Positions 40,217 to 53,795 of a stretch of DNA of 64,000 nt are shown here, in pieces. The stretch is from Candidatus Fermentibacterota bacterium (GTDB lineage Bacteria; Fermentibacterota; Fermentibacteria; Fermentibacterales; JCC-6). The notes beneath the pieces are model-generated. The model was not told the DNA's origin, made no database searches, and was given only the letters and a program-made list of their open reading frames with translations. Within the stretch, counting starts at the first letter, position 1; every line of letters begins with the position of its first letter. The stretch spans positions 835,232-899,231 of the forward strand of contig CAWJQI010000004.1 in the NCBI GenBank assembly GCA_963845085.1, given 5' to 3'. The position numbers and the translations under genes were made by a program.

Positions 40217-40504
40217 ATGAGATTCATAAGCGTTCGCGACCTGCGGGGAAACTCCGGTGCCATTTGGCGTGACCTTCCCGATGAGGGTGAGATGGTAATC
40301 ACAAGCAACGGACGACCGGTTGCCATGCTTGCAGCGGTGGATGAAACTGACGTTGAGGAATCCATTGCTGCCTTCAGACGGGTAAGGGCGGAACGGGCGA
40401 TAGCCGACCTTCAGAGGGCTTCAATTGCCCAGGGTACGGATTCAATGTCCATGGAAGCCATTGACCAGGAGATAAGTGATTCAAGAAAAGCACGCCCCCG
40501 ATGA
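40217..40504 (+). CDS. Phd/YefM family antitoxin
   Basis: MRFISVRDLR..EMVITSNGRPVA. Confidence 0.85.
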   Translation: MRFISVRDLRGNSGAIWRDLPDEGEMVITSNGRPVAMLAAVDETDVEESIAAFRRVRAERAIADLQRASIAQGTDSMSMEAIDQEISDSRKARPR

Positions 40505-40911
40505 TGAGGATTGTCTTTGAAACCAATGTACTGGTGTCAGGGTTGCTGACCCCCTTTGGCATGTGTGCCGATCTGGTAAGGCTGTTTACAACCGATGAGG
40601 TAATCCTCTGTGTCGATTCCCGTATCCTGCTGGAGTATGAGGAAGTGCTGGGAAGAGAGCGCTTCCGTCTTGATCAAAAACTGGTATCGGTTCTTATGGA
40701 GTACATCAGAAGAACGGCGGAGCTTCACTCATGCATGCCTCTGAGCGAACCACTCCCCGATCCGGAAGACTGCTGCTTCCTCGAGGTGGCCATCGCCGCT
40801 CATGCCGATTGCCTGGTCACAGGAAACACGCGACATTTCCCCTCCGGTCTCCGATACGGAGTCAGGGTGCAAACCCCGTCAGAGTCTCTTGCAATGCTGA
40901 AAGAGCGTTGA
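40501..40911 (+). CDS. PIN-domain toxin (PIN_3 type)
   Basis: RIVFETNVLVS, EYEEV, PDPED..FLE, LVTGN.RHF; coupled to the antitoxin. Confidence 0.85.
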   Translation: MMRIVFETNVLVSGLLTPFGMCADLVRLFTTDEVILCVDSRILLEYEEVLGRERFRLDQKLVSVLMEYIRRTAELHSCMPLSEPLPDPEDCCFLEVAIAAHADCLVTGNTRHFPSGLRYGVRVQTPSESLAMLKER

Positions 40912-41110: not shown

Positions 41111-41235
41111 AGCCAGCTAGTCCGACTTATCGTCATGATCCTGAACAAGGTGTCTATTGACGCATTTCATATTCATCTGTATTTGATTCAGTAGTAGTAG
41201 AGCCTGCAGAGATGAGTGTCCCTGAAAGGGTAATT

Positions 41236-42677
41236 GTGAAGACTTTGCTGGCATTGGGTTTTCTAGTGAGCAGTACCCTGACGTTCGCTGAAGCAAATCC
41301 ATCCCTTGCCACCCTACTGACTCCCGACGGAGAGATTTCAGAAGGGCATGATACGGAAGGCACCTGGCATGCCCTGGGAAGTGGTATTGAAGGGATTGTA
41401 CCATCTGTCATTGACATCGCTGTGGGAGGCTCGGGTGTGTACGCAGGAGGTGATTTCACACTGGCTGGTGGCAACCCTGCCAATTACATCGCCCGCTGGG
41501 ACGGCAGTTCCTGGCATACCCTTGGAAGTGGATTGAACTACTTTGTTTATGCCATATCAGTGAGTGGTTCAGATGTTTATGCGGGGGGTACTTTTACTCA
41601 GGCTGGTGGTGTCTCGGCCAACTGTATCGCCCGCTGGGACGGCAGCTCCTGGCATACTCTGGGAAGTGGATTAAACCACTTTGTTTATGCCATCTCAGTG
41701 AGCGGCTCCGATGTGTACGCAGGAGGTGATTTCACCCTGGCTGGTGGCAATCCTGCCAATTACATCGCCCGCTGGGACGGTAGCTCCTGGCATGCCCTGG
41801 GAAGTGGGGTCGGAGGAGGCGCATACCCGTATGTCGTTGCCATTGCGGTGAGTGGCTCCGATGTGTATGTGGGAGGCCGCTTCACCCAGGCTGGCGGTAA
41901 CCCCGCCAACTACATCGCCCGTTGGGACGGCAGTTCCTGGCATGCGCTTGGAAGCGGTTTGAACGACATGGTAACCGCAATCGGAGTGAATGGTTCGGAT
42001 GTTTTTGTCGGGGGTGATTTCACCCAGGCTGGCGGTAACCCCGCCAACTACATCGCCCGTTGGGACGGCAGTGCCTGGCATGCACTTGGAAGTGGATTGA
42101 ACAGCTCTATTCGTCCCATCGCAGTGAGTGGTTCGGATGTGTATGCGGGGGGTACTTTCACCCAGGCTGGTGGCATCCCCGCCAACTGCATCGCCCGTTG
42201 GGACGGCAGTTCCTGGCATGCACTGGGAAGTGGCGTAGGAGGTGGTTCACTCCCATGTGTCATTACCCTCGCCATAAGCGGTTCCGATGTGTTTGCCGGG
42301 GGTGATTTCACCCAGGCTGGTGGCAACCCGCCAACAACATCGCCTGTTGGGTACCGGAGCCAACCGGAATCGAACCACCCATGGCTGAGGTGTTTCCTGG
42401 CGGCAGGTCTTCGCTCCAGGCTTCACCCAATCCCCTGACTGACGGAACGAACCTCTCCTTCCAGATCACTGGGGATTCCCCGCTGACACTTGAGATCTTC
42501 GACATTGCGGGACGCCTTGTGAGAGATCAGGAACTTGGAGCCCTGCTGGCCGGTTCACACACCCATTACTGGGACGGGCGTGACGAAAAAGGTTCCGCTT
42601 TGGCATCGGGTGTGTACTTCGTACGGCTTTCCAGCACGGAGTTCGAAGCTTCCACACGGGTGATTCTGATTAGGTAG
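41236..42677 (+). CDS. Secreted 7-repeat beta-propeller protein with FlgD/T9SS-type C-terminal domain; frameshift at about 42326
   Basis: Signal peptide; 7 repeats of WHxLGSG..VYAGGxFTxAGG..ANxIARWDGSS; one C is missing relative to sister repeats; CTD ASPNP..IFDIAGRLVR..WDGRD..LASGVYFVRL. Confidence 0.85.
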
Positions 42678-42696
42678 AACGGCCCATGAACGAATG

Positions 42697-42720
42697 AAGG
42701 GGAGTCGAAAGGCTCCCTTT
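42697..42720 (+). terminator. Intrinsic terminator (second copy at 44508-44531)
   Basis: GGGAGTC-GAAA-GGCTCCC-TTT. Confidence 0.7.
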
Positions 42721-42742
42721 CTCTGTTTCGCGTTAACTTGGT

Positions 42743-42756
42743 GTATTTGGTACGCC
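42743..42756 (+). repeat. att-like core copy 1
   Basis: GTATTTGGTACGCC, identical to 53714-53727. Confidence 0.85.
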
Positions 42757-42765
42757 AAAGCGCGG

Positions 42766-43101
42766 ATGGCTCAAACCGGATCCGGACCGACTTTCCCCCT
42801 CATAACCTTCCGTCCTGACATCCCCATACCCCGCAGAGGTCCATTACGCAACCCGCTCATCTTCGCTAGGGAACTCGATGATGAACTGCTCCGTGACAAC
42901 CTCACCCGGGTTCAGCTCGGGAAAAGGCACGGCGTCACTTCAGACCGGATCACCCAGTGGCTCTGCCTGATGAAGCTACCGGAGGAGAAGCAAAGAGAAA
43001 TCGAATCCCCGGGGGATACCGAAGGGTGGCGGGAAGAGAAAGCTGAAAAGACAGTATCGCATTCACACCAGAGAATCTGTCACATCTATAGCCAGCGATG
43101 A
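42766..43101 (+). CDS. Cassette HTH mini-protein copy 1 (C-terminus degenerate)
   Basis: RNPLIFARE..LTRVQLG.RHGVTSDRITQWLCLMKLP; diverges after IE. Confidence 0.6.
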   Translation: MAQTGSGPTFPLITFRPDIPIPRRGPLRNPLIFARELDDELLRDNLTRVQLGKRHGVTSDRITQWLCLMKLPEEKQREIESPGDTEGWREEKAEKTVSHSHQRICHIYSQR

Positions 43102-43171: not shown

Positions 43172-44488
43172 GTGTATCTTCCTGCAGCTATACCAGCAGA
43201 TAGGTGGTACATTCTGAAAAACATCCTTGGTTCAGTGTCACTCGCATTTATTCTTCTGCTGGCCGTTTCTGGAACAGGGCTGGCGCAGTGGAACGGCCAG
43301 GTCGTGGCGTTTGGAGCTGGACAACCGGGTCAGACTGGATGGCCCCATTACGGCCAGTGCAGTGTGCCTTACCCGAACAGCGGTTTCGTGGCTGTAGCGG
43401 GGGGATTGTTTCATAGCCTCGGCTTGAAGGAAGACGGCACCATTGTGGCGTGGGGGGTTGATGACGGGGGTGAATACGACTTCGGACAAGTTACCAACAC
43501 CCCAACAGAGGGTGGATTCGTGGCCGTAGCGGGGGGATCGTATCACAGCCTCGGCCTGAAGGAAGACGGCACCATTGTGGCGTGGGGGGTTGATGACGGG
43601 GGTGAATCCGACTTCGGACAAGTTACCAACACCCCAATAGATGGTGGATTCGTGGTCGTAGCGGGGGGATCGTTTCATAGCCTCGGCTTGAAGGAAGACT
43701 GCACCATCGTGGCATGGGGGAGAAACAACGAAGGCCAGTGCAACACTCCTTCACCAAACAGTGGTTTCGTGGCTGTAGCGGGAGGGGCCCAGCACAGTCT
43801 TGGCTTGAAGGAGGATGGTTCCATTGTAGCGTGGGGGTTCAACCTTTATGGCCAATGCAATGTTCCTTCACCGAACAGCGGTTTCGTGGCGGTTGCAGGA
43901 GGAGCCCAGCACAGTCTTGGCTTGAAGGAAGATGGTTCCATTGTAGCGTGGGGGAATAACTATTTCGGCCAGTGCGATGTTCCTTCACCGAACAGTGGCT
44001 TCGTGGCTGTTGCGGGTGGCTCCCAGTTCAGCCTCGGGCTGAAGGAAGACGGTTCGATCGTGGCATGGGGGGACAACAACTACGGCCAGTGCGACATTCC
44101 TTCTCTCAATAGCGGCTTCGTGGGAGTAGCGGCTGGAAGGTGCCACAGCCTCGGGCTTCGGGAGATTAGCACCTCGGTCGAAGACTCAGAATACGCAGCC
44201 GTTAACCCTGCATCCCTGATGATTCATAGCATCTTTCCCAACCCCTTCGACAGCCATGTTACGCTCTGCTTCGAATCTCCCGGCCTTTCAACCGTTACCC
44301 TTACAGTACATGACACCTCGGGACGCGTGGTGAGATTGCTTGATCTGGGAGCACTGCCTATTGGTTCCCATATCCACTACTTGGACAGTTGTGACGAAAA
44401 CGGAGCCGCTCTGGCCTCGGGAGTGTACTTCGTGAGGCTTTCAAGCGAGGAACAACAGGCTTCCATAAAAGTGGTGCTGATAAGGTAG
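43172..44488 (+). CDS. Secreted RCC1/BLIP-II-like 7-repeat beta-propeller with FlgD/T9SS-type CTD (start uncertain)
   Basis: 7 repeats of FVAVAGG..HSLGLKEDG.IVAWG; CTD IFPNPF..DTSGRVVR..LASGVYFVRL. Confidence 0.88.
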   Translation: MYLPAAIPADRWYILKNILGSVSLAFILLLAVSGTGLAQWNGQVVAFGAGQPGQTGWPHYGQCSVPYPNSGFVAVAGGLFHSLGLKEDGTIVAWGVDDGGEYDFGQVTNTPTEGGFVAVAGGSYHSLGLKEDGTIVAWGVDDGGESDFGQVTNTPIDGGFVVVAGGSFHSLGLKEDCTIVAWGRNNEGQCNTPSPNSGFVAVAGGAQHSLGLKEDGSIVAWGFNLYGQCNVPSPNSGFVAVAGGAQHSLGLKEDGSIVAWGNNYFGQCDVPSPNSGFVAVAGGSQFSLGLKEDGSIVAWGDNNYGQCDIPSLNSGFVGVAAGRCHSLGLREISTSVEDSEYAAVNPASLMIHSIFPNPFDSHVTLCFESPGLSTVTLTVHDTSGRVVRLLDLGALPIGSHIHYLDSCDENGAALASGVYFVRLSSEEQQASIKVVLIR

Positions 44489-44553
44489 AACGGCCCACGG
44501 ACAAAGTAAGGAGAGTCGAAAGGCTCCCTTTCTCTGTTTCGCGTTCGATTGGT

Positions 44554-44567
44554 GTATTTGGTACGCC
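44554..44567 (+). repeat. att-like core copy 2
   Basis: GTATTTGGTACGCC, identical to 53714-53727. Confidence 0.85.
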
Positions 44568-44576
44568 AAACCGCGG

Positions 44577-44879
44577 ATGACTCGAACCAGATCAGGGGCT
44601 TCTTTCTCCCTGAAAACCCTGCGCCCGGACATTCCCATACCCCGCAGAGGTCCCTACAGGAATCCACTGATCTTCGCCCGGGAACTCCATGAGGAAATGC
44701 TCCGGCATAACCTTACCCGGGTTCAGCTCGGGCAGCGGCACGGCATTACTTCAGACCGGATCACACAGTGGCTCTGTCTGCTGAAGCTGCCGGAAGAAAA
44801 GCAACAGGAGATCGAGGACCTGGGGGACCACTGGGAACGGCGGGTGGTGACTGAGAGGGGACTGAGGAGAGAGAAGTAG
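44577..44879 (+). CDS. Cassette HTH mini-protein copy 2
   Basis: 100 aa; ParB-like HTH LTRVQLGQRHGITSDRITQWLCLLKLP..VTERGLR. Confidence 0.72.
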   Translation: MTRTRSGASFSLKTLRPDIPIPRRGPYRNPLIFARELHEEMLRHNLTRVQLGQRHGITSDRITQWLCLLKLPEEKQQEIEDLGDHWERRVVTERGLRREK

Positions 44880-45025
44880 TGTCACATTCAAGCCGGCAAT
44901 TACAGCGCATTGTTATATGTGGGGACAAGGTATCCATTGACGTATCACGTGTCCACAGGTATTTACATTCCGTTGTAGTACAGCCTGAAAGCTGAATCTC
45001 CCTGAAAGGGGGACACATTAAGGCT

Positions 45026-45265
45026 ATGTCGACATTGGGTCTTCTCGTGAGCAGTTCTTTGGAATGCTTTGAAACCCTTCCGGATAATGTCACGTCCTTC
45101 GGTGGTTTCAGCATAGCAGACATCGACAGGGATGGCGTTGTCGAGATGGTCTTCGGCACCAGCGACGGACGCCTTCACTGCTGGGAACTGGGTGCATGCA
45201 CATCCGGCTATGCCCCCTGGCCCCAGTTCCAGCATGATGAGGGAAGAACGGGTGTTCTGCAATGA
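45026..45265 (+). pseudogene. C-terminal fragment of an FG-GAP-repeat protein fused to a signal-peptide remnant
   Basis: IADIDRDGVVEMVFGTSDG..WPQFQHDEGRTG; ATGA overlap with the next gene. Confidence 0.65.
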
Positions 45266-46683
45266 CAGTTCTCGGGCTTCTCTGTCTCTGGCTCTCCGGG
45301 GTTACCCCGAGTCCGGGCTGGAGCACACCGGTTCTGGTGACTGATTCCTGCAATACTCAACGCCCGGTTGTTTTCGTCCATAGAGACGACCTTGGCAGAT
45401 TTCATCTTGTCTGGGCAGGATATAATGATAGCAACAGAATTGCATACAAGATGTTCTCTCTAGACGGAAGCACTTTATATCCTGAAACAATGATATCACG
45501 CGATGTAACGAGTGCGTACCTTTCAACCATGGTCACCGGTGATAGCCTTTACGTCTTCTGGAGAGAGACCAGTCCGGTTTACTACGCCGTCCGCAGTCTG
45601 ACTGACGGCAGCGAGATCGTGCCAGCCACCTACCTGTTCACGACCTACACTCTCTATCCCTACATCAGGGCATGCCCGGACAGCCTTGGCAGACTGCATG
45701 TGATCTACAACGACGGAAGCGATGTCAGGTATGCAGTATGGACGCCGGCACCCGGATCAGGCTTCACTGTCGAGCGTGACTGGAAGATTGAAGGGGCAGA
45801 CGCGGGTGGAGTTCTCCTTGTTGACGGGAACCGGGTTCATGTCGTGGTGCAGGATCCGGTGGATCACAATTATTCCTACCTCCAATACGACCTTAATGGG
45901 AATACGGTTGTACCAATCACTGACTTTACTCCAGACTACATTATTTGCAATCGGTTCCCGGAACTTGCCGTTGATGAGAACGGTAATCTTATAGTAGTTC
46001 ATTTGACTTCAGTTGATGCCTATTGCTATGTGCTGTGGAAGCTGGATAAGTACAGCGGATTCACCATGATAAACCAGAAGGTCATAGTTACATCTGAACC
46101 ACCGGAAATGTATGTCAGCCTGGAATTCATCCTTCGCAATATACATGGAACTGACCTTTTCTACCTTGTGTGGACAGACAACGGCCAGGACAATCAGATA
46201 CTTTTCCTCCTGATGAACGGTAATGGAGATGTGGTAGTTGACTGGGCGATTGCATACGACTATTCGGACGAGGACCCTGAAGGTCTGCCTTGCATAAGTG
46301 GAGAAGCCGATGCCGAGGGTAATCTGTACATCGCTTATGAACAGGCTGAGACCGAGCCGGTCTTGGGTAATTACCCCACCTTCGGCTGGTTCGACTACGA
46401 TTACGTCAGCACAGCCAGACAGCAGGTCGCTGCCGTTCCTGGCGATGGATTCAGTTTCTCATGCAATCCCGTGGCGGGTTCCGTCACCGTTCGCACCGGT
46501 TCAGAGACACAGACACTTCGCGTATACGACATCACCGGGAGAGAGGTTTCGAGTATTCCGGTTTCTGACGGAACAGGCATCTGGTATGGCAGGGATTTCT
46601 CGGGAGTCAGACTGCCCGCGGGGATCTACACCGTTGTCGGGCAGTCAGGTATTATACATCGATTGACATTACTAAATCATTAG
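45262..46683 (+). CDS. Secreted beta-rich protein with FlgD/T9SS-type CTD
   Basis: Signal peptide; repeats DDLGRFHLVW / DSLGRLHVIY / DENGNLIVV; CTD SCNP..VYDITGREV..W.GRD..LPAGIY. Confidence 0.82.
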   Translation: MTVLGLLCLWLSGVTPSPGWSTPVLVTDSCNTQRPVVFVHRDDLGRFHLVWAGYNDSNRIAYKMFSLDGSTLYPETMISRDVTSAYLSTMVTGDSLYVFWRETSPVYYAVRSLTDGSEIVPATYLFTTYTLYPYIRACPDSLGRLHVIYNDGSDVRYAVWTPAPGSGFTVERDWKIEGADAGGVLLVDGNRVHVVVQDPVDHNYSYLQYDLNGNTVVPITDFTPDYIICNRFPELAVDENGNLIVVHLTSVDAYCYVLWKLDKYSGFTMINQKVIVTSEPPEMYVSLEFILRNIHGTDLFYLVWTDNGQDNQILFLLMNGNGDVVVDWAIAYDYSDEDPEGLPCISGEADAEGNLYIAYEQAETEPVLGNYPTFGWFDYDYVSTARQQVAAVPGDGFSFSCNPVAGSVTVRTGSETQTLRVYDITGREVSSIPVSDGTGIWYGRDFSGVRLPAGIYTVVGQSGIIHRLTLLNH

Positions 46684-46688
46684 TAGTC

Positions 46689-46697
46689 TGGTACGCC
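46689..46697 (+). repeat. att-like core copy 3
   Basis: TGGTACGCC; left flank ACATTACTAAATCAtTAGTA matches the flank beside the tRNA (53697-53716). Confidence 0.8.
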
Positions 46698-46706
46698 AAA
46701 CCGCGG

Positions 46707-47009
46707 ATGACTCGAACCAGATCAGGGGCTTCTTTCTCCCTGAAAACCCTGCGCCCGGACATTCCCATACCCCGCAGAGGCCCCTACCGGAACCCTCTCC
46801 TATACGCCCGGGAACTCCAGTTGGAGATGATACGCCACAACCTTACCCGGGTTCAGCTCGGGCAAAGGCACGGCATTACTTCAGACCGGATCACCCAGTG
46901 GCTCTGTCTGCTGAAGCTACCGGAAGAGAAGCAGCGGGAGATTGAAGCCTTGGGAGACCACTGGGACCGGCGGGTGGTGACGGAGAGGGAACTGAGGCGG
47001 TGGCGGTAG
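46707..47009 (+). CDS. Cassette HTH mini-protein copy 3
   Basis: 100 aa; the 92 bp from the core are identical to copy 2, and the next differences are mostly synonymous. Confidence 0.72.
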   Translation: MTRTRSGASFSLKTLRPDIPIPRRGPYRNPLLYARELQLEMIRHNLTRVQLGQRHGITSDRITQWLCLLKLPEEKQREIEALGDHWDRRVVTERELRRWR

Positions 47010-47071: not shown

Positions 47072-48775
47072 TCAAGGGTCAACTATCATAATCCGACCGG
47101 TGGTGACATTCCCGGAACACTCGAAGTGGACAAGATAGATGCCATTTGGAGCAAGAGATCCAGTTTCAGTTCTTCCGTCCCAGAGTACATCAGAGCCATG
47201 CAAAGCATTTAAAGTCCAGACAACCCTTCCCGCAAGATCGAATAAAGTGAGAGTTCCCTCGAGTGATTCTGACCCAGACCCGGCAGCATCACAGAATGAA
47301 GCCCGATCGGACTGCGGTACGTTAATAATCCAATTGCCATCTCCACCTCGACGCGCTGTAACTCGCTGATGGTCTCTGATATCCTCTCTTCCAAACACAA
47401 GGATTTCGCTGGCACCCTCTACACAAGCAATTCTGAGAAACCTTGTTCTAAGGCTGTCTTCTCCGAGGTCCGTCCTTGATGAAAGAGAGCCTCTCTCAAC
47501 CATGTGCATAAGGGAGGCATCCGAGAGAGTGGACGAAGACTGGTCTTCTCTTTGCACAATGACTGAAGTGATGGTGTGAACAGCTCCCAGGTCGATTTCA
47601 ACTGAATGTGCCCCCGGGGAGGGTCGATAGTACCCATCAAGCCTTCCGTCAGTAAGACACCATGGGTTTCCTTGAGCTTCAGTTCTGAATCCAGCAGCAT
47701 CTCGGTTTGACACAAGTGATGCCATGTCAAAAAGCTCACAGACTGGTTTTCCCAAAGCAACATTTGATCCCTGAGGGATGTCAAACAGCAGCCTGACGCT
47801 AGGTTCGGACTCCTGCCCGCCATCAACTGCTGTGACCCAGTACTCGACGCTGGAGTGTTCTACTGCAGGAAACCGATCTGTGTAGATGCTGACACCAGGA
47901 TATGCAAGGCCCAACAACTCTATTTCACCACTTGCTGGGAAACACCTGAAAACCTGATGCAGTAGCTGTGAACCATCGCCCGCACAGAGCATACTAGAGC
48001 TCTCAAGTCCGCTCCACGAAAGATGAATCACTGCATTGCCTTCTTCGATATGTATATCACCTGTCAGGTCTGGCTGAAGTGGAGCTGAAGATTGGATCTC
48101 ATTGTTGTCTAGATCAAAGAACTGACTGACATGATAGGTCTGTTGAAATCCTCCACCGCCTTGCGAAGAAAGCTGCTCCCAATTCACGATTATCTCTTCG
48201 CCAGTGAGTCCGAGTTGTGGATTGAGTGAAGGTATATGGTTCGGGATTGAGATCTGATTGCTCGAGATGCCGAGGGGAACACCCGAAGCAGTCGGTAATG
48301 CACTGTAACAAACGAGATGCCCCGTACAGCTTTCAATTTCCGGCGGTTCCGCGACGACAACTTGATCATAATAGAACACGAATAGATATCGACCGGACTG
48401 AGTATTCACGGCATTATACCATATCATTTCATCAGATGTTGGAATACTCAGTTGAAACGAGTCCCATTCGTCCGGTCCAGTGGGTCTTGCTAGATAGACA
48501 AATGGGGGTTTCTCAAAATCGTACCAATGTTGCAGCCAGAAACCACCCCAGTCAGGACAAATCCCATGAATTTGATACTCACCATCAAAAGGGCCAGATG
48601 AAGGGTTCATATCCACACTTAATCCCAAGTCATCAATAAGGTGCACCTCTGTCACAAATGTGAGTGGTGGAAACCTGTAACCCCTAATTCGGTAGTCAGG
48701 AGGCCAAGTCGTTGGTTTACACCAAATGTCAATATCACCCCATGAATGGAGTGTGTCTGCGAAACCAACTTCATA
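47072..48775 (-). pseudogene. C-terminal half of a large secreted protein (FN3-like and discoidin-like segments plus CTD) separated by IS3
   Basis: No signal peptide; frame stays open upstream of the listed GTG to about 48775; YWVTAVD..ESEPS, NVALGKP..EIDLG, LFDLAGRVV..WDGR..APNGIY. Confidence 0.7.
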
Positions 48776-48825
48776 TTAGGTAGAATATAGAGTGAATTGG
48801 GTTTTTTAGATACATGTTGGTGGTA

Positions 48826-49915
48826 GCTTTTAAGGAGTCGTGGGGACGCTGCTCGTTGTACTCTCGATCCATTCTCCGTGATCTGACTGCTCCAGGTTCT
48901 CGAACAGGTAGCGTTGAGAACCTCGTTGCGGTAGGTTTGGTTGAAGCGCTCGATGAAGGCGTTCTGATTCGGCTTGCCGGGCTGGATGTGGCGCGCTCCA
49001 CGGCGTTCTCCTCGCACCAGGCACGAAGGCCTGGCTGAGAAGCTCGGGGCGTTGTCGCAACGGATCGCTGGCGGTGTGCCCCGCCAGTTCTTCAGGCGTT
49101 CGAGCACCTGCACGACGCGCTCGCCCGAGAGCGAGGTGTCTACCTCGATGTCGAAGATTCCCGGATCCCCTCGTCGAGCACGTTCAGCGTGCGGAAGCGG
49201 CGTCCGAGTAGAGAGCATGTGCATGAAGTCGAGAGACCAGATCGCGTTGGGTCTGTCGGCGCTTACATGGGCAACGGTCCGGGTGGGTATGCGCTTCTTT
49301 GTGTGCGTTGTCTGTTCAAGCCGAGCTCCGTGTAGACCCGGTGAACGCGTTTGTGATTCCAAGGATGGCCGTCGAGACGCAGCCGGTCGTAGGACTTCCA
49401 GAAACCCCAGCGGTTGTAAAGCACCAGCAACGCCTGCAGGGCCTCGATAAGCTGCTGTCGTACTCCCGCCAGTCCCGGAAGGGTTGTACCACGCCGAGCG
49501 CGACAGACCACAAGCTCGCGTGAGGACGCACCGACAGTGTCTGCTCGGCCACCAGATACGTCGCGGCTTCTCGGCGTTCTAGCGGTGTTGGAGTTTTTTT
49601 GAGAGAAGCTTCTTCAGGGCATGGTGCTCGAGGCTGGAGTCGGAGTACATGCGCTTGAATCGGGTGTTCTCTGTCTCGAGCTCCTTGATCCGCTTAAGCT
49701 CCGAGGCGTCCAGGCCGCTGTACTTCGTCTTCCAGTGGTAGAAGGTGTAGGCGCTGATGCCGTGCTGGCGGCAAATCGGTGACGCGACTCCGGCATCGGC
49801 TTCTCGCAGGATCGCCACCGTCTGCGTTACCGTGAACCTGGATTGTTTCATCTCGACCTCCTGGGTTGGCAGGAAGTCTCACTCTAACAAATGTCCACTA
49901 AACGGGGGAGCTCCC
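48826..49915 (-). mobile_element. Degenerate IS3-family (IS407-like) element
   Basis: OrfA 49579-49851 (MKQSRFT..CRQHGIS..FYHWKTKY); frameshifted OrfB (WNHKRVHRVY, WSLDFM, RCDN, PGKPNQNAFIERFN); left IR ..CCCCCGTTTAGTGGACA; right IR not found. Confidence 0.88.
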
Positions 49916-51708
49916 GCTGTTGTGTTCATCCAGATTGGGCTGGCAACCGTCTCAGGATCGGTGTCAATTGGATTGCCCGTAAGGTCTTTGGGTACACTAC
50001 TACCATCAGGGCTTCCAATGTGAACTCTAATCTGGCCAACATATCCGGGCCAGTTTGTTTCTGTTTCGTAGCAGACCCAGTAATGAGAACTAGTCGGGTT
50101 CAATTCTCCCAGTATTGTACGCCAAGGTGCTGGATATAGGATACCTTCCTCCCCCAGATACAGTGAGTTGAAGATAGGTTCTGCTGTAGTGCCGCCTCCA
50201 GTCAGCCAAACACATCCTAGGTCATCCTCATTCATCTTTTCCGAGTACTTCACGGCGACGCCGATAGTGCTTTGCCCACTATCAAACAAGCTCCAATTGT
50301 CAATAGCATTCTGCACTCTGAGTTCCGCTATTGGATCTGCAGAATCTGACGTTGTCCAACCGCCCCTGAATCTGACACTGAATGGAGACAATTGATAGAC
50401 AATTATCGAGTCCACATGCGGATAGAAGTTATCAATAAGAAAGCCCCTTGGATCCTTAATGATCGGATTTGCATAGCAATCAATGGCTGGCAGCGTTGCT
50501 GTTCGCCTACTGACTCCATCCTGAGTTGTTGCTGTAACATTTACCCAGTATCGACCGTCACAGAAAATCGAGTGCTCATTGACATATGCCGTTGGGGCTT
50601 GTTGTGAACCTCCACCCCCGAACATTTCTCTTAGCCTGGTATCCAATCCACCGATATTGTAGTGGCTCTCTTGCCAGTCATGGGAAACAACTGAAGGGTA
50701 GTCAACAATATTGTCAATACCGGTCTCGCCCGTCGGAAAATCACCGCTGTTTGTGATAATGTAGTTGTTGAAAAAGGGACCAACTATAGGTCCATCGGGT
50801 CCTTCGTCAGCAAATAAAGCCTGATACTCCAACATATCAGCAGAATTGTCATAAGGCAATGTGCCATTCATGGTGAACACAATACGATTACTTTGTATAG
50901 GGCAAATTAATTGAGGACTATATATATTCTGCCGAACAATATCGTATGCAATCTGTCTGACCCCGCACTTACCACCAACACCAAAAGAGGTCGCGGTCAC
51001 TGAAAGCGGGTTGACGACAAAGTCGACAGCACCATTAAATACCCTCTGGAACATAGTTCTGTCTTGGCTCGGGTCATCATTGAATGCTTCGTCACCGTCT
51101 GGAAGAACGATGATCCCTTTGCTAAGTGAGCTTGAACCAAAGATTTCTGTCTCCCAATCCCGCACTCGAGCAAACTGAACTACCTGGTATCCTGTTGGAA
51201 CGCTTTCAATCCAGTCGAAAGGATTGTGGTAAGTTAATTCAATATCTGGTATTTGATCGAACCATGCTGGAACCCAGGCAACATGTATGTGACGGTAAGT
51301 CAAGGATGTGGTCATGGCAAGAGTTTGCTTTGGTATTCCAGCACTAGTGTGATAGTCATGGTACCAAATCCTTGGATTTGGAAAATTGATATGCCCATAT
51401 GACCATCCCCAAGTATCCGCGTTGTCTGTTCCGAAGCAAACAATCTGGTTGTCAGGGCTAGAGGATTGTGCCCAGGGAATTCCAATTGCATACCATGGCT
51501 GATTAGCGGGAGACAGCACATAGCTTCCGGTTGTTTGGTTCGGGTCGGTGAAATCAAGCCCTGCATGGAAGCCCTGAACGGCTCTGTCACCATAGCCTAT
51601 GTCGCAGGTCTCAAGGGTTCCTGCTGGAGTTCCTCCGAAAATTGGCCCGGAGAAGTCCCAGTGGGGTGCCGGTACAAAGAGCAAAGTTACGAGGAGTGAA
51701 GCCAGCAT
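49879..51708 (-). CDS. N-terminal half of a large secreted protein with an M23 peptidase-like domain, truncated by IS3
   Basis: Signal peptide; FHAGLDF (HxxxD), YGHI, HIH, NPF; the last ~10 codons come from the IS end. Confidence 0.72.
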   Translation of the reverse strand: MLASLLVTLLFVPAPHWDFSGPIFGGTPAGTLETCDIGYGDRAVQGFHAGLDFTDPNQTTGSYVLSPANQPWYAIGIPWAQSSSPDNQIVCFGTDNADTWGWSYGHINFPNPRIWYHDYHTSAGIPKQTLAMTTSLTYRHIHVAWVPAWFDQIPDIELTYHNPFDWIESVPTGYQVVQFARVRDWETEIFGSSSLSKGIIVLPDGDEAFNDDPSQDRTMFQRVFNGAVDFVVNPLSVTATSFGVGGKCGVRQIAYDIVRQNIYSPQLICPIQSNRIVFTMNGTLPYDNSADMLEYQALFADEGPDGPIVGPFFNNYIITNSGDFPTGETGIDNIVDYPSVVSHDWQESHYNIGGLDTRLREMFGGGGSQQAPTAYVNEHSIFCDGRYWVNVTATTQDGVSRRTATLPAIDCYANPIIKDPRGFLIDNFYPHVDSIIVYQLSPFSVRFRGGWTTSDSADPIAELRVQNAIDNWSLFDSGQSTIGVAVKYSEKMNEDDLGCVWLTGGGTTAEPIFNSLYLGEEGILYPAPWRTILGELNPTSSHYWVCYETETNWPGYVGQIRVHIGSPDGSSVPKDLTGNPIDTDPETVASPIWMNTTAGAPPFSGHLLE

Positions 51709-53030
51709 TACTCCATCTCCTCTCTTCTGAGCGCAACAATGTACAGCTTGTATGACTCAACGAAGAAGGCAAGTACACTGCCGTCAGGCCTCGGAAGAAC
51801 CCAGTTGTTCGGACCAAGGTAATCCAGAGAATGGTTGAAAGAGTGAGTAACGCCATAACTGTCTGATACAGGAACGAGCAGTAAAGGTGTCATTGCAGGC
51901 GATACTACAGCTATCGCTTTTGACTCTGCTCTTTCTGAAACTGCTCCGATTGTCCAATAGTCGTCTGAGATTCCAAGCACCCAGAAGTAGAAATTGCTGA
52001 TTCCAATCCTCATGTTACTAAGCCCTTCCTCAAAGAGCTCATTAGGTGAATACGATCTTCTCTCCACAAATCTGGAAGCTACAGAACCGAGTGTAAAAAA
52101 ATGCGTAAGGTTGGTATCAGTGACCACACTTGCGTAACTGCAAGAGCCATTTGATACAGCCGTTACCATGGAATTCGAGGGCCATGAATACTCCGCTGAA
52201 TCAAGGATGCCACCGGTCCTTCCATCCAGCTTGTACATGGAACCGTTTCTTGTAAGGCAGAAAACAGTATTCCCATCCGGTGTGATTTGCACATCCACTG
52301 GAAAATCACCCTCCTCGATTCTGAAGACCCAGAGAAGGTTTCCGTCCCAGTCAAAGGCTCCCATCGCCGGAAACCCGTACCCCGGAAGACCGGCAACGAA
52401 AATGTCCTCCTCGCTTGCGACATCAAAGTATCTGAAACTGTGTTCAACCTCAACAAACTTCGGCGCAGCGGAAAGGTTCTCTCGGTCATACACGTTGAAC
52501 CCATGAAGCTGATCCTGGTTGCTGTCAGTCACGCCAATGACGCGTCCTGAACCTGATACGAGAAGACCTGCGGAGGCTCCACCCGGAGCGGGATCAAAGG
52601 TTTCTGCAGTCCAATTGTCGATATCGATGAGAACGGCAGTGTCCCCGTGATAAATGTAATCACTCGCGACGGTTCGTTCCGCTCCTTCCCTGAGGGATTG
52701 AACGGCGATGAAACGGCCGTTTGTAGAAGTGGCTACCCTTCTTGTTAGAGAGGTAAGGATGTACTCTCTAGGGGATGTCCAGTCTTCCTGCAGAACCACG
52801 ACTTTGTCATCCCCCACGATGACAACCCTCCAGACCTCTACATTACCGGATCTTACGATGAAGGCATCAGCGTAATAACCGTCGTACATTATTGGGGCTG
52901 CGTACTCTGCGGGATCGATTGTCACAAGGCTACTGATTGTCCATCCAGGCGCAACCCACCAGTCTTCAGGAACGGTGTTGGAGGAGAGTGATGACTGTGC
53001 GAGAAGGACAGAAACGATTAGTGGCAACAT
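51708..53030 (-). CDS. Secreted beta-propeller-like protein
   Basis: AGGAG RBS, signal peptide, DWDGNLLW / ITPDG / LDGRTG motifs; translationally coupled to the next gene. Confidence 0.7.
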   Translation of the reverse strand: MLPLIVSVLLAQSSLSSNTVPEDWWVAPGWTISSLVTIDPAEYAAPIMYDGYYADAFIVRSGNVEVWRVVIVGDDKVVVLQEDWTSPREYILTSLTRRVATSTNGRFIAVQSLREGAERTVASDYIYHGDTAVLIDIDNWTAETFDPAPGGASAGLLVSGSGRVIGVTDSNQDQLHGFNVYDRENLSAAPKFVEVEHSFRYFDVASEEDIFVAGLPGYGFPAMGAFDWDGNLLWVFRIEEGDFPVDVQITPDGNTVFCLTRNGSMYKLDGRTGGILDSAEYSWPSNSMVTAVSNGSCSYASVVTDTNLTHFFTLGSVASRFVERRSYSPNELFEEGLSNMRIGISNFYFWVLGISDDYWTIGAVSERAESKAIAVVSPAMTPLLLVPVSDSYGVTHSFNHSLDYLGPNNWVLPRPDGSVLAFFVESYKLYIVALRREEME

Positions 53031-53625: not shown

Positions 53626-53718
53626 AAGAGTGAATTGATAGAAGGGGGGTGCCCCTCTTAATGGTGAAAACCATGAATCGCTTTATGCGCTATATTACAT
53701 TACTAAATCAATAGTATT

Positions 53719-53795
53719 TGGTACGCCCGTAGGGAATCGAACCCCAAACCTTCTGGTCCGTAGCCAGATGCTCTATCCAATTGAGCTACGGGCGC
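53719..53795 (-). tRNA. tRNA-Arg(ACG)
   Basis: GCGCCCGTAGCTCAATTGGATAGAGCATCTGGCTACGGACCAGAAGGTTTGGGGTTCGATTCCCTACGGGCGTACCA: cloverleaf, anticodon ACG, encoded CCA. Confidence 0.97.

Follow-up and report, generated by a model that had tools for sequence, protein, structure and literature searches.

What is the small gene that recurs at the joints of a cargo array in the genome of a Candidatus Fermentibacterota bacterium? The stretch of DNA analysed here, which we call the window, comprises 64,000 nucleotides (nt) of assembly GCA_963845085.1 (contig CAWJQI010000004.1, positions 835,232 to 899,231 of the forward strand), and positions below are counted from its first letter. Two open reading frames (ORFs) in it, 44577-44879 and 46707-47009, encode 100 amino acids (aa) each. 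An initial annotation of the sequence took this ORF, a ParB-like helix-turn-helix (HTH) protein, for the constant gene of each cassette, and proposed that it was a recombination directionality factor (RDF) or an attachment (att) site-binding protein carried by each cassette, or the retained tail of an ancestral recombinase. Our analyses favor the last of these. We put the probability at about 85% that the 100-aa ORF comes from a large serine recombinase (LSR) gene, one that contains its own attP and is cut by integration, and encodes the C-terminal part of the enzyme. Judged by their sequence, the window copies are joints, each an attP arm plus a tail, of integrase-less islands stacked at a tRNA gene.

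The LSRs of relatives carry this reading. Of 8000 scored candidates, seven were longer proteins matching the tail. In P0154 and P0156, the HTH follows Resolvase, Recombinase and zinc-ribbon domains; P0151, P0152, and P0155 align with the C-terminal half of LSRs, P0153 is ambiguous, and P0157 is unrelated. Fused ORFs were also found in DNA, at loci L038 (654 aa) and L124 (710 aa from stop to stop, with the HTH type of the window), so that in-frame fusion of the tail behind Resolvase, Recombinase and zinc ribbon is seen in P0154, P0156, L038, and L124. A single-sequence fold prediction of the 654-aa fusion was unusable (pLDDT 35.7). The suggestion of a retained recombinase tail is strongly supported, as the tail is part of LSRs that are still present in relatives.

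The 5' parts of such genes end inside the target. Ten LSR genes in genomes of the phylum run head-on into tRNA-Arg(ACG) or tRNA-Asn(GTT), and all ten read through the core. Nine of them stay open for 469-578 codons into the frame of the core TGG codon and end after 13-14 tRNA-derived residues (the antisense of tRNA-Arg(ACG) gives resident LSRs in relatives a 14-aa tail and a stop). The tenth, L087 (G064:C11), is one base off, like its three best-matching tail arms. With three further distinct LSR junctions in the TGG frame, 13 of 13 LSR genes read into the antisense tRNA and stop. At L089 and L147, an LSR body at the tRNA accompanies a tail at the far end, and the arms match. After integration, the LSR body still has its four standard domains, and the catalytic serine motif is retained. 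Together, these junctions and fusions indicate that integration splits the gene, which spans the crossover site, and that tandem joints can restore an in-frame fusion. The expected association of homologs with recombinases and tRNA att sites holds both for the fused forms and for the LSRs at tRNA-Arg and tRNA-Asn. In the sub-family of L087, both halves cross the core one base shifted, and L090 is an out-of-frame joint between the two frame classes.

In the window, the TGGTACGCC core corresponds, in reverse complement, to the 3' end of tRNA-Arg(ACG) at 53719. The HTH frame includes the TGG codon of this core, and this opening TGG is the reverse complement of the CCA end of the tRNA. The target gene occupies 53719..53795 on the reverse strand; its 3' end (53719-53742) forms the attB-type half site, in which 12 nt separate the T-loop motif from the center. 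Two other tRNAs of the source genome share this 3' ending, but they are far away. Copy 2 of the ORF opens with an attP-type half site at 44559..44587 on the forward strand, consisting of the core TGGTAC with a putative central dinucleotide AC (44563-44564) and of TCGAAC at 44582-44587, 17 nt out. The half site of copy 3 (46689-46717) is the same.

We defined the center of an arm as the dinucleotide after TGGT. A TCGAAC-like motif lies 17 nt from this center in 65 of 75 tail arms (nine others are weak and one has it at 16 nt) and, by best match, in 9 of 10 LSR ends; in all ten tRNAs it lies 12 nt from the center, where it is the T-loop. With spacings of 17 and 12 nt, the arms show the 5-bp shift of the zinc-ribbon (ZD) motif between attP and attB that is described in a section of PMC3783163. 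The arm of copies 2 and 3 is an inverted repeat of the L092 LSR end at 17 of 19 positions, as compared with 6-11 for nine other LSRs. This match covers 11 of 13 variable positions (P 1.1e-5, with equal base frequencies). The two P arms are inverted repeats of each other, and their ZD motif is 5 bp farther from the center than that of attB. L092 (G062) and L093 sit at orthologous tRNA-Arg genes in two congeneric genomes.

The left arms at array joints are P-type in 9 of 75 cases, and 50 of 75 are without the motif. Eight of the 75 have the motif 14 nt from the center, one codon shorter than the P arm (44543-44564 in the window, and joints in G062, G064, and G068), and others are a P arm with a 10-nt insert. 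These 14-nt and 10-nt-insert arms may be a route of target regeneration. The left arm beside the tRNA (53697..53718, forward strand) is repeated at 46665-46688 before copy 3 and is not an LSR end. Similar arm sequences occur in L093 and L094 (tRNA-Arg, center AC) and in L091 and L095-L097 (tRNA-Asn, center GC), which suggests that targets may be switched by the core alone. A quick tree of the tails (68 columns, mostly unresolved, one label or more misassigned) shows no more than a clustering of the central dinucleotide with tail class.

We compared the copies within the window. Copy 2 (44559..44879, forward strand) consists of the att core and an in-frame 3' fragment of a putative large serine integrase gene, 106 codons from the TGG, with a linker of ~30 aa followed by a ParB/Noc-type HTH; the annotated ATG at 44577 is internal. 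Copy 3 (46689..47009, forward strand) is the same module, intact. Copy 1 (42748..43017, forward strand) is a decayed version in which the att motif is mutated and the last part of the HTH is deleted, so that homology to the others ends after codon 84 and the frame continues to 43101. The repeated HTH that had been called the constant gene of each cassette is thus found in copies 2 and 3, but copy 1 has decayed, and no copy precedes the leftmost cargo gene (41212).

The identity between copies 2 and 3 runs for exactly 92 nt (44559-44650 and 46689-46780), with zero identical bases directly upstream of the core. These first 92 bases take in the att arm, which is constrained as DNA. Beyond them, 31 codons differ, 20 synonymously and 11 non-synonymously, so both the 92-bp identity and the mostly synonymous later differences reported initially are confirmed. 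The rates of synonymous (dS) and non-synonymous (dN) substitution are 0.39 and 0.047, a ratio of 0.12 that is not near 1 (Nei-Gojobori, codons 1-98; binomial p 1.3e-7). In ten pairs of close copies at 5-10% distance, the ratio of non-synonymous to synonymous differences (pN/pS) is 0.05. A 68-residue core is free of indels in 81 of 83 copies, and several residues are 97-100% conserved over 137 copies. The HTH and the purifying selection on the repeated ORF are real. Low dN/dS is no proof of a separate gene, because divergence within full integrases predicts it too.

The ATG of the ORF lies 18 nt from the core and has no Shine-Dalgarno (SD)-like sequence in front of it, as was noted initially; this spacing is fixed within the window but recurs in only 7 of 75 related core-bearing copies, and 30 of the 75 have any in-frame ATG between the core and the HTH. 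The homologous frame opens at the core TGG, which is in frame in 66 of 75 copies. The remaining nine are one base off, and they include the tail class that matches the frame-shifted LSR. An SD-like 4-mer precedes an in-frame ATG in 2 of 129 copies versus 10 of 13 LSR starts, the latter counted with a slightly looser rule. Neither a conserved start nor a conserved SD was found that would point to separate translation of the HTH as a small protein. The ATG of the window ORF thus appears incidental, the 100-aa ORF is probably not a stand-alone gene, and the window copies are probably not translated in place.

The tail has a recognizable fold. The 100-aa ORF matches Pfam PF17762 just below the cut-off (E 2.6e-4; 21.5 bits against 22.6), and a profile of 45 homologs matches Noc (E 3.2e-7) and Spo0J (E 9.2e-7). 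The structure predicted from the 45-row alignment has five helices, with pLDDT 88-94 at residues 31-80. Foldseek ranked ParB and Noc at the top (best E 0.018, TM 0.50; nothing at E<=0.001), and identity to ParB-type domains is 33-37% over ~50-57 residues. We are therefore confident in predicting a ParB/Noc-like fold, in line with the first assignment as a ParB-like HTH. Domain scans of the HTH protein revealed no N-terminal CTPase (ParBc) domain, and no partition context was found. PHROGs gave zero matches for the HTH and NCBIfam a weak match only. No binding motif or parS-like site was found for the HTH, and no motif is common to the regions upstream of 13 LSRs or downstream of 123 tails. Among the 150 homologs listed from a 50% library, N-termini are ragged; of the 35 inspected, many cross a W-x7-RT-like motif. 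P0099 (232 aa) consists of two tandem copies of the ParB/Noc-type HTH. When the L092 integrase (residues 185-553) was modeled in complex with the HTH, the median was 0.18 (runs 0.15, 0.39, and 0.18; mark 0.32), and the result was not used either way.

We then profiled the tails across the phylum. The tail was detected in 58 of 70 genomes (up to 19 matches each, often 1-3 kb apart), and the LSR body, with L092 as query, in 12 of 70. Among the loci fetched, three of 141 tail candidates were false, 114 pass a strict test, and 13 of the remaining 24 are broken as judged by eye. The loci were chosen by similarity, so the decay (about 13 of 138 broken) is understated. Six congeneric junctions were read: two have an LSR, two an arm remnant, one the 14-nt arm type, and one is of another kind; none of the six is an empty target site. 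A search of genome contigs with P0137 returned one weak, unrelated-looking locus. Atlas rows, treated as leads only, point to Ca. Fermentibacterota (one row, score 0.88) and, in other rows, to Omnitrophota and Planctomycetota. Islands that keep an LSR (L092, L097, L100, and L087) carry mainly restriction-modification and helicase defense genes, and the integrase-less units carry secreted proteins.

The units of different genomes are built alike, from a promoter region, a secreted protein, a sorting tail, a hairpin, and an arm. Cargo can be nearly identical although the tails in front of it differ: in one pair, the cargo is 97.9% identical over 1140 nt and the tails differ at 22 of 204 bases; in a second, the values are 96.6% and 84 of 204 (one self-overlapping row was dropped from this comparison). 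The tails of several of the 11 aligned pairs become more alike over their last ~55 nt, abruptly in two pairs and gradually in others. We read this switch near the 3' end of the tail as homologous recombination between neighboring tails. Contigs of related strains, from small shares of four DNA sequencing runs, have other joints (42734->46688 and 46987->41237); they are only 85% alike, and we do not take them as evidence of excision.

These observations can be joined in one mechanism. The free circle would carry the gene in the order catalytic domain, recombinase domain, zinc ribbon plus coiled coil, attP, linker, and HTH, and would make the long enzyme. The enzyme would cross over at a dinucleotide in the acceptor stem of the tRNA, whose T-loop would act as the zinc-ribbon motif. 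Because the crossover site lies inside the integrase gene, integration would cut off the tail: the first ~550 codons would be read into the antisense tRNA, which adds 13-14 aa and a stop, and the HTH would be stranded at the far end of the island, as sequences in relatives indicate. Repeated integration at one tRNA would stack islands, most of which would lose the integrase body, and recombination of neighboring tails would reshuffle arms and cargo. Granted this, the HTH may be an extra DNA-binding domain that makes the attP-encoded enzyme integration-competent, a role to which we would give slightly less than even odds. An extra DNA grip for integration is favored because the tRNA has one good half site and the left arms are unconstrained; the alternatives are autoregulation or directionality. 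In a bolder picture, these would be LSRs with a built-in switch, in which attP specifies the long form and the tRNA antisense the short form, replacing a separate directionality factor. The integrase-less units would then be real cassettes that donate the domain to a neighboring body. Together they would make up an integron-like library of secreted proteins that spans the phylum and is operated by a serine recombinase recognizing the universal tRNA T-loop. We consider this larger picture speculative and rather unlikely.

Several observations weigh against a split integrase gene. No excised circle with a cognate attP was seen in the contigs of relatives. Both fused ORFs known from DNA have mismatched arms (6/19 at L038 and 1/13 variable positions at L124, hand counts), which marks them as chimeric tandem junctions, and L124 is without a terminal repeat. 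Stranded tails are mostly unbroken, and this holds even for G005 (a single contig with 7 copies and no LSR match), so that either fast turnover or selection on the tail itself is needed. Left arms are mostly not P-type, which leaves target regeneration unaccounted for, and the HTH came without a binding motif. Finally, in three of nine viral loci, a separate ORF that starts at the end of an LSR gene encodes a distant relative of the HTH, pointing to a possible trans role of the HTH in the wider family.

Such a role is the core of one alternative, in which the stranded tail is also made alone from attR-side copies and serves as a trans-acting directionality factor or repressor on related LSRs. 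The low pN/pS of close copies and the open state of most copies would fit, as would the viral ORFs and the position of copy 3, 23 nt past a cargo stop, where no hairpin was noted and co-transcription would be possible. The scarcity of the ATG at +18 and of SD-like sequences in front of the tails does not fit. In addition, hairpins precede copies 1 and 2, and four of the eight copies in the source genome are damaged. If the circle encoded an integrase joined to an RDF, integration would also be expected to be blocked, as SPbeta Int-RDF fusions suggest (bioRxiv 10.1101/2025.01.03.631226). We regard a trans factor as unlikely, and the initial proposal of an RDF or att-binding protein in each cassette is poorly supported on the same grounds of start, hairpins, and damage. 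The chimeric in-frame joints at L038 and L124 open another route, an integron-like platform in which arm-HTH-cargo units are mobile cassettes moved by a resident or visiting LSR; a unit landing beside a body would complete the gene, and the tail would be kept under selection. The common backbone of units across genomes and the number of tails, which far outnumber LSR bodies, agree with such a platform, as do, weakly, the related-strain contigs that join the same parts in other orders. However, the left arm mostly mismatches the unit's own right arm, so that a circularized unit would be without a normal attP, the joint at L090 is out of frame, and near-identical cargo behind very different tails is explained by ordinary homologous recombination. 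This platform is doubtful, although we take it more seriously than a trans factor.

Two further explanations fare worse. The tail could be dispensable baggage that supplies only the right arm of attP and a stop codon, and the integrated LSR body does keep its four standard domains and catalytic serine motif. Such baggage would not be expected to show the indel-free core, the nearly invariant residues, a dN/dS of about 0.1, and a confident ParB/Noc-like fold, and we hold this to be very improbable. That a small, independent ParB/KorB-like regulator gene lies beside att sites by chance would suit the ATG assigned by ORF callers and the fold, but it is contradicted by the fused LSR forms; frame continuity with the core, the co-varying frame class, the inverted-repeat match to LSR ends, and the ragged N-termini of homologs add to this, and we give it hardly any credence.

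Parallels to the split integrase gene exist in several known systems. The genes of the phage LSRs LI/A118, phiC31, Bxb1, and SPbeta are, to our knowledge, not split by integration and have no ParB-like tail. Their direction is set by a separate RDF. Integrons hold arrays of small cargo units at one site through a tyrosine recombinase. No IntI or attC-type system was tied to the present array (no attC model was run), and its joints carry serine-type arms. Integration of the Myxococcus phage Mx8, again by a tyrosine recombinase, alters the C-terminus of its integrase. Archaeal suicidal integrases have tRNA genes as targets. They also place att inside the integrase gene, split it into N and C parts, and allow chimeric genes between elements; Badel et al. 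(2021, PMC8371274) describe such self-splitting tyrosine integrases (SSV1, pTN3, pT26-2) as exclusively archaeal. Their catalytic domain is in the C part, whereas the bacterial serine integrase here appears to keep its catalytic and att-binding domains in the N part and to shed an accessory domain. Shared with the phage LSRs, as far as sections of PMC3783163 and bioRxiv 10.1101/2025.01.03.631226 describe them, are the domain order, the short core with a central dinucleotide, and the 5-bp ZD shift. With ParB, Spo0J, Noc, and KorB (PF17762; PDB 6sdk, 7ng0, 6y93), the tail shares the helical HTH fold; unlike them, it has no CTPase or dimerization domain and no parS-like site that we could find, and it is part of an integrase frame.

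The closest likeness is to the ssrA islands of Dehalococcoides. Passages of McMurdie et al. (2011, PMC3146451) report that dsiB always overlaps attL and that islands occur in tandem, many without an integrase, and propose that only the circle, or a neighboring island that contributes a 3' fragment, makes dsiB complete. Here, too, an LSR gene without its own stop overlaps attL, and tandem islands, many of them without an integration module, lie at the 3' end of a stable RNA gene. Unlike in those islands, the targets are tRNA-Arg(ACG) or tRNA-Asn(GTT), the cargo is mostly secreted proteins, and the 3' fragment is identified as a folded HTH of ~100 aa that is seen fused. A six-gene DsiA module was not noted beside the LSRs, whose neighbors are mostly defense and regulator genes, in annotations that were not searched for this module specifically. 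Overlap and stacking are thus already known from Dehalococcoides; in the literature searched, we found no case in which an entire folded domain is the part cut off. Our full-text search, outside which most subscription papers lie, returned no report of a ParB-like domain severed from a serine integrase, and the main text of Durrant et al. (PMC10083194) has no occurrence of 'tRNA'.

The 2011 remark on DsiB-like integrases that are complete only on the circle can now be put to a concrete test, with both halves, the arms, and natural fusions in hand. Self-splitting integrase genes would then no longer be confined to the tyrosine integrases of archaea. Genome engineers who mine integrated islands for LSRs may obtain enzymes that miss a real C-terminal domain. 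The LSR family appears to target tRNA ends via the T-loop, with the central dinucleotide tracking the tRNA. Many short 'HTH_ParB' ORFs annotated beside tRNAs would be island joints, not genes, and in this phylum the arrays look like a main route for varying secreted proteins.

The array in the window carries mostly repeat proteins with FlgD/sorting tails, at a G+C content of 0.50-0.55 versus 0.58 in the flanks. On the forward strand, the cargo of the oldest unit (41212..42677) is a beta-propeller-like repeat protein (41212-42438) frameshifted from its FlgD/sorting tail (42381-42677), with no HTH in front; relatives of this repeat protein are intact in G062 and G005. A terminator-like hairpin (42696..42721, forward strand) closes this gene 26 nt before core 1 and is repeated at ~44507-44532 before core 2. 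The cargo of unit 1 (43172..44488, forward strand) is an RCC1-repeat protein with a FlgD/sorting tail. That of unit 2 (45026..46683, forward strand) comprises a 79-aa remnant (45026-45265) and a 473-aa protein with a weak FlgD-like tail (45262-46683). The region upstream of the remnant resembles that of the 41212 gene, and the remnant looks like an internally deleted secreted protein. Unit 3 (47072..53030, reverse strand) contains ORFs of 527, 609, and 440 aa, interrupted at 48652-49851 by an insertion sequence remnant that, from its translation, we take to be of the IS3 family. To the left, a Phd/YefM and PIN toxin-antitoxin pair (40217..40911, forward strand), of which an 89% identical pair lies inside a unit in G062, was probably carried as cargo by an older unit. 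No congeneric match was found for the gene left of the array, so the left border is not fixed. A promoter scan gave 6 sites against 11.2 in shuffles, which is fewer, and the 14 terminator-like sites are at chance level (12.9).

The source genome has five more copies outside the window. Four start at the TGGCGCCTC core, which matches the ends of tRNA-Asn(GTT) in relatives, and one has lost its core; tRNA-Asn(GTT) itself is absent from the source assembly, which is 88% complete. In addition to the damaged copies mentioned above, one has a scrambled linker. The L092 LSR query had no match in this 88% complete genome. Its only serine recombinase matches are two short resolvase-type genes (G000 C1:35.2-35.9k, 247 aa, and C5:313.4-314.1k, 234 aa), which have their own stops and were rejected as the integrase partner. 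The ORF directly before each is presumably RadC/JAB-like, and a similar recombinase gene lies inside the L098 island. The three tyrosine recombinase matches of the source genome are on other stretches.

Decayed mimics of the tRNA-Arg 3' end with attB-type spacing occur at G000 C5:76543, C5:249486, and C4 ~411,000. Before them lies the 3' end of a gene resembling the 473-aa cargo of the window, and one mimic adjoins tRNA-Leu(CAA), where G062 has an array (L043). A decayed mimic of the tRNA-Asn end closes the unit at C4:413.6k. These mimics may be spare target sites. A conserved motif of ~28 nt containing a G6/C6 hairpin is also found near island ends, at 53648-53675 in the window, before three other cores, and beside both tRNA-Glu genes.

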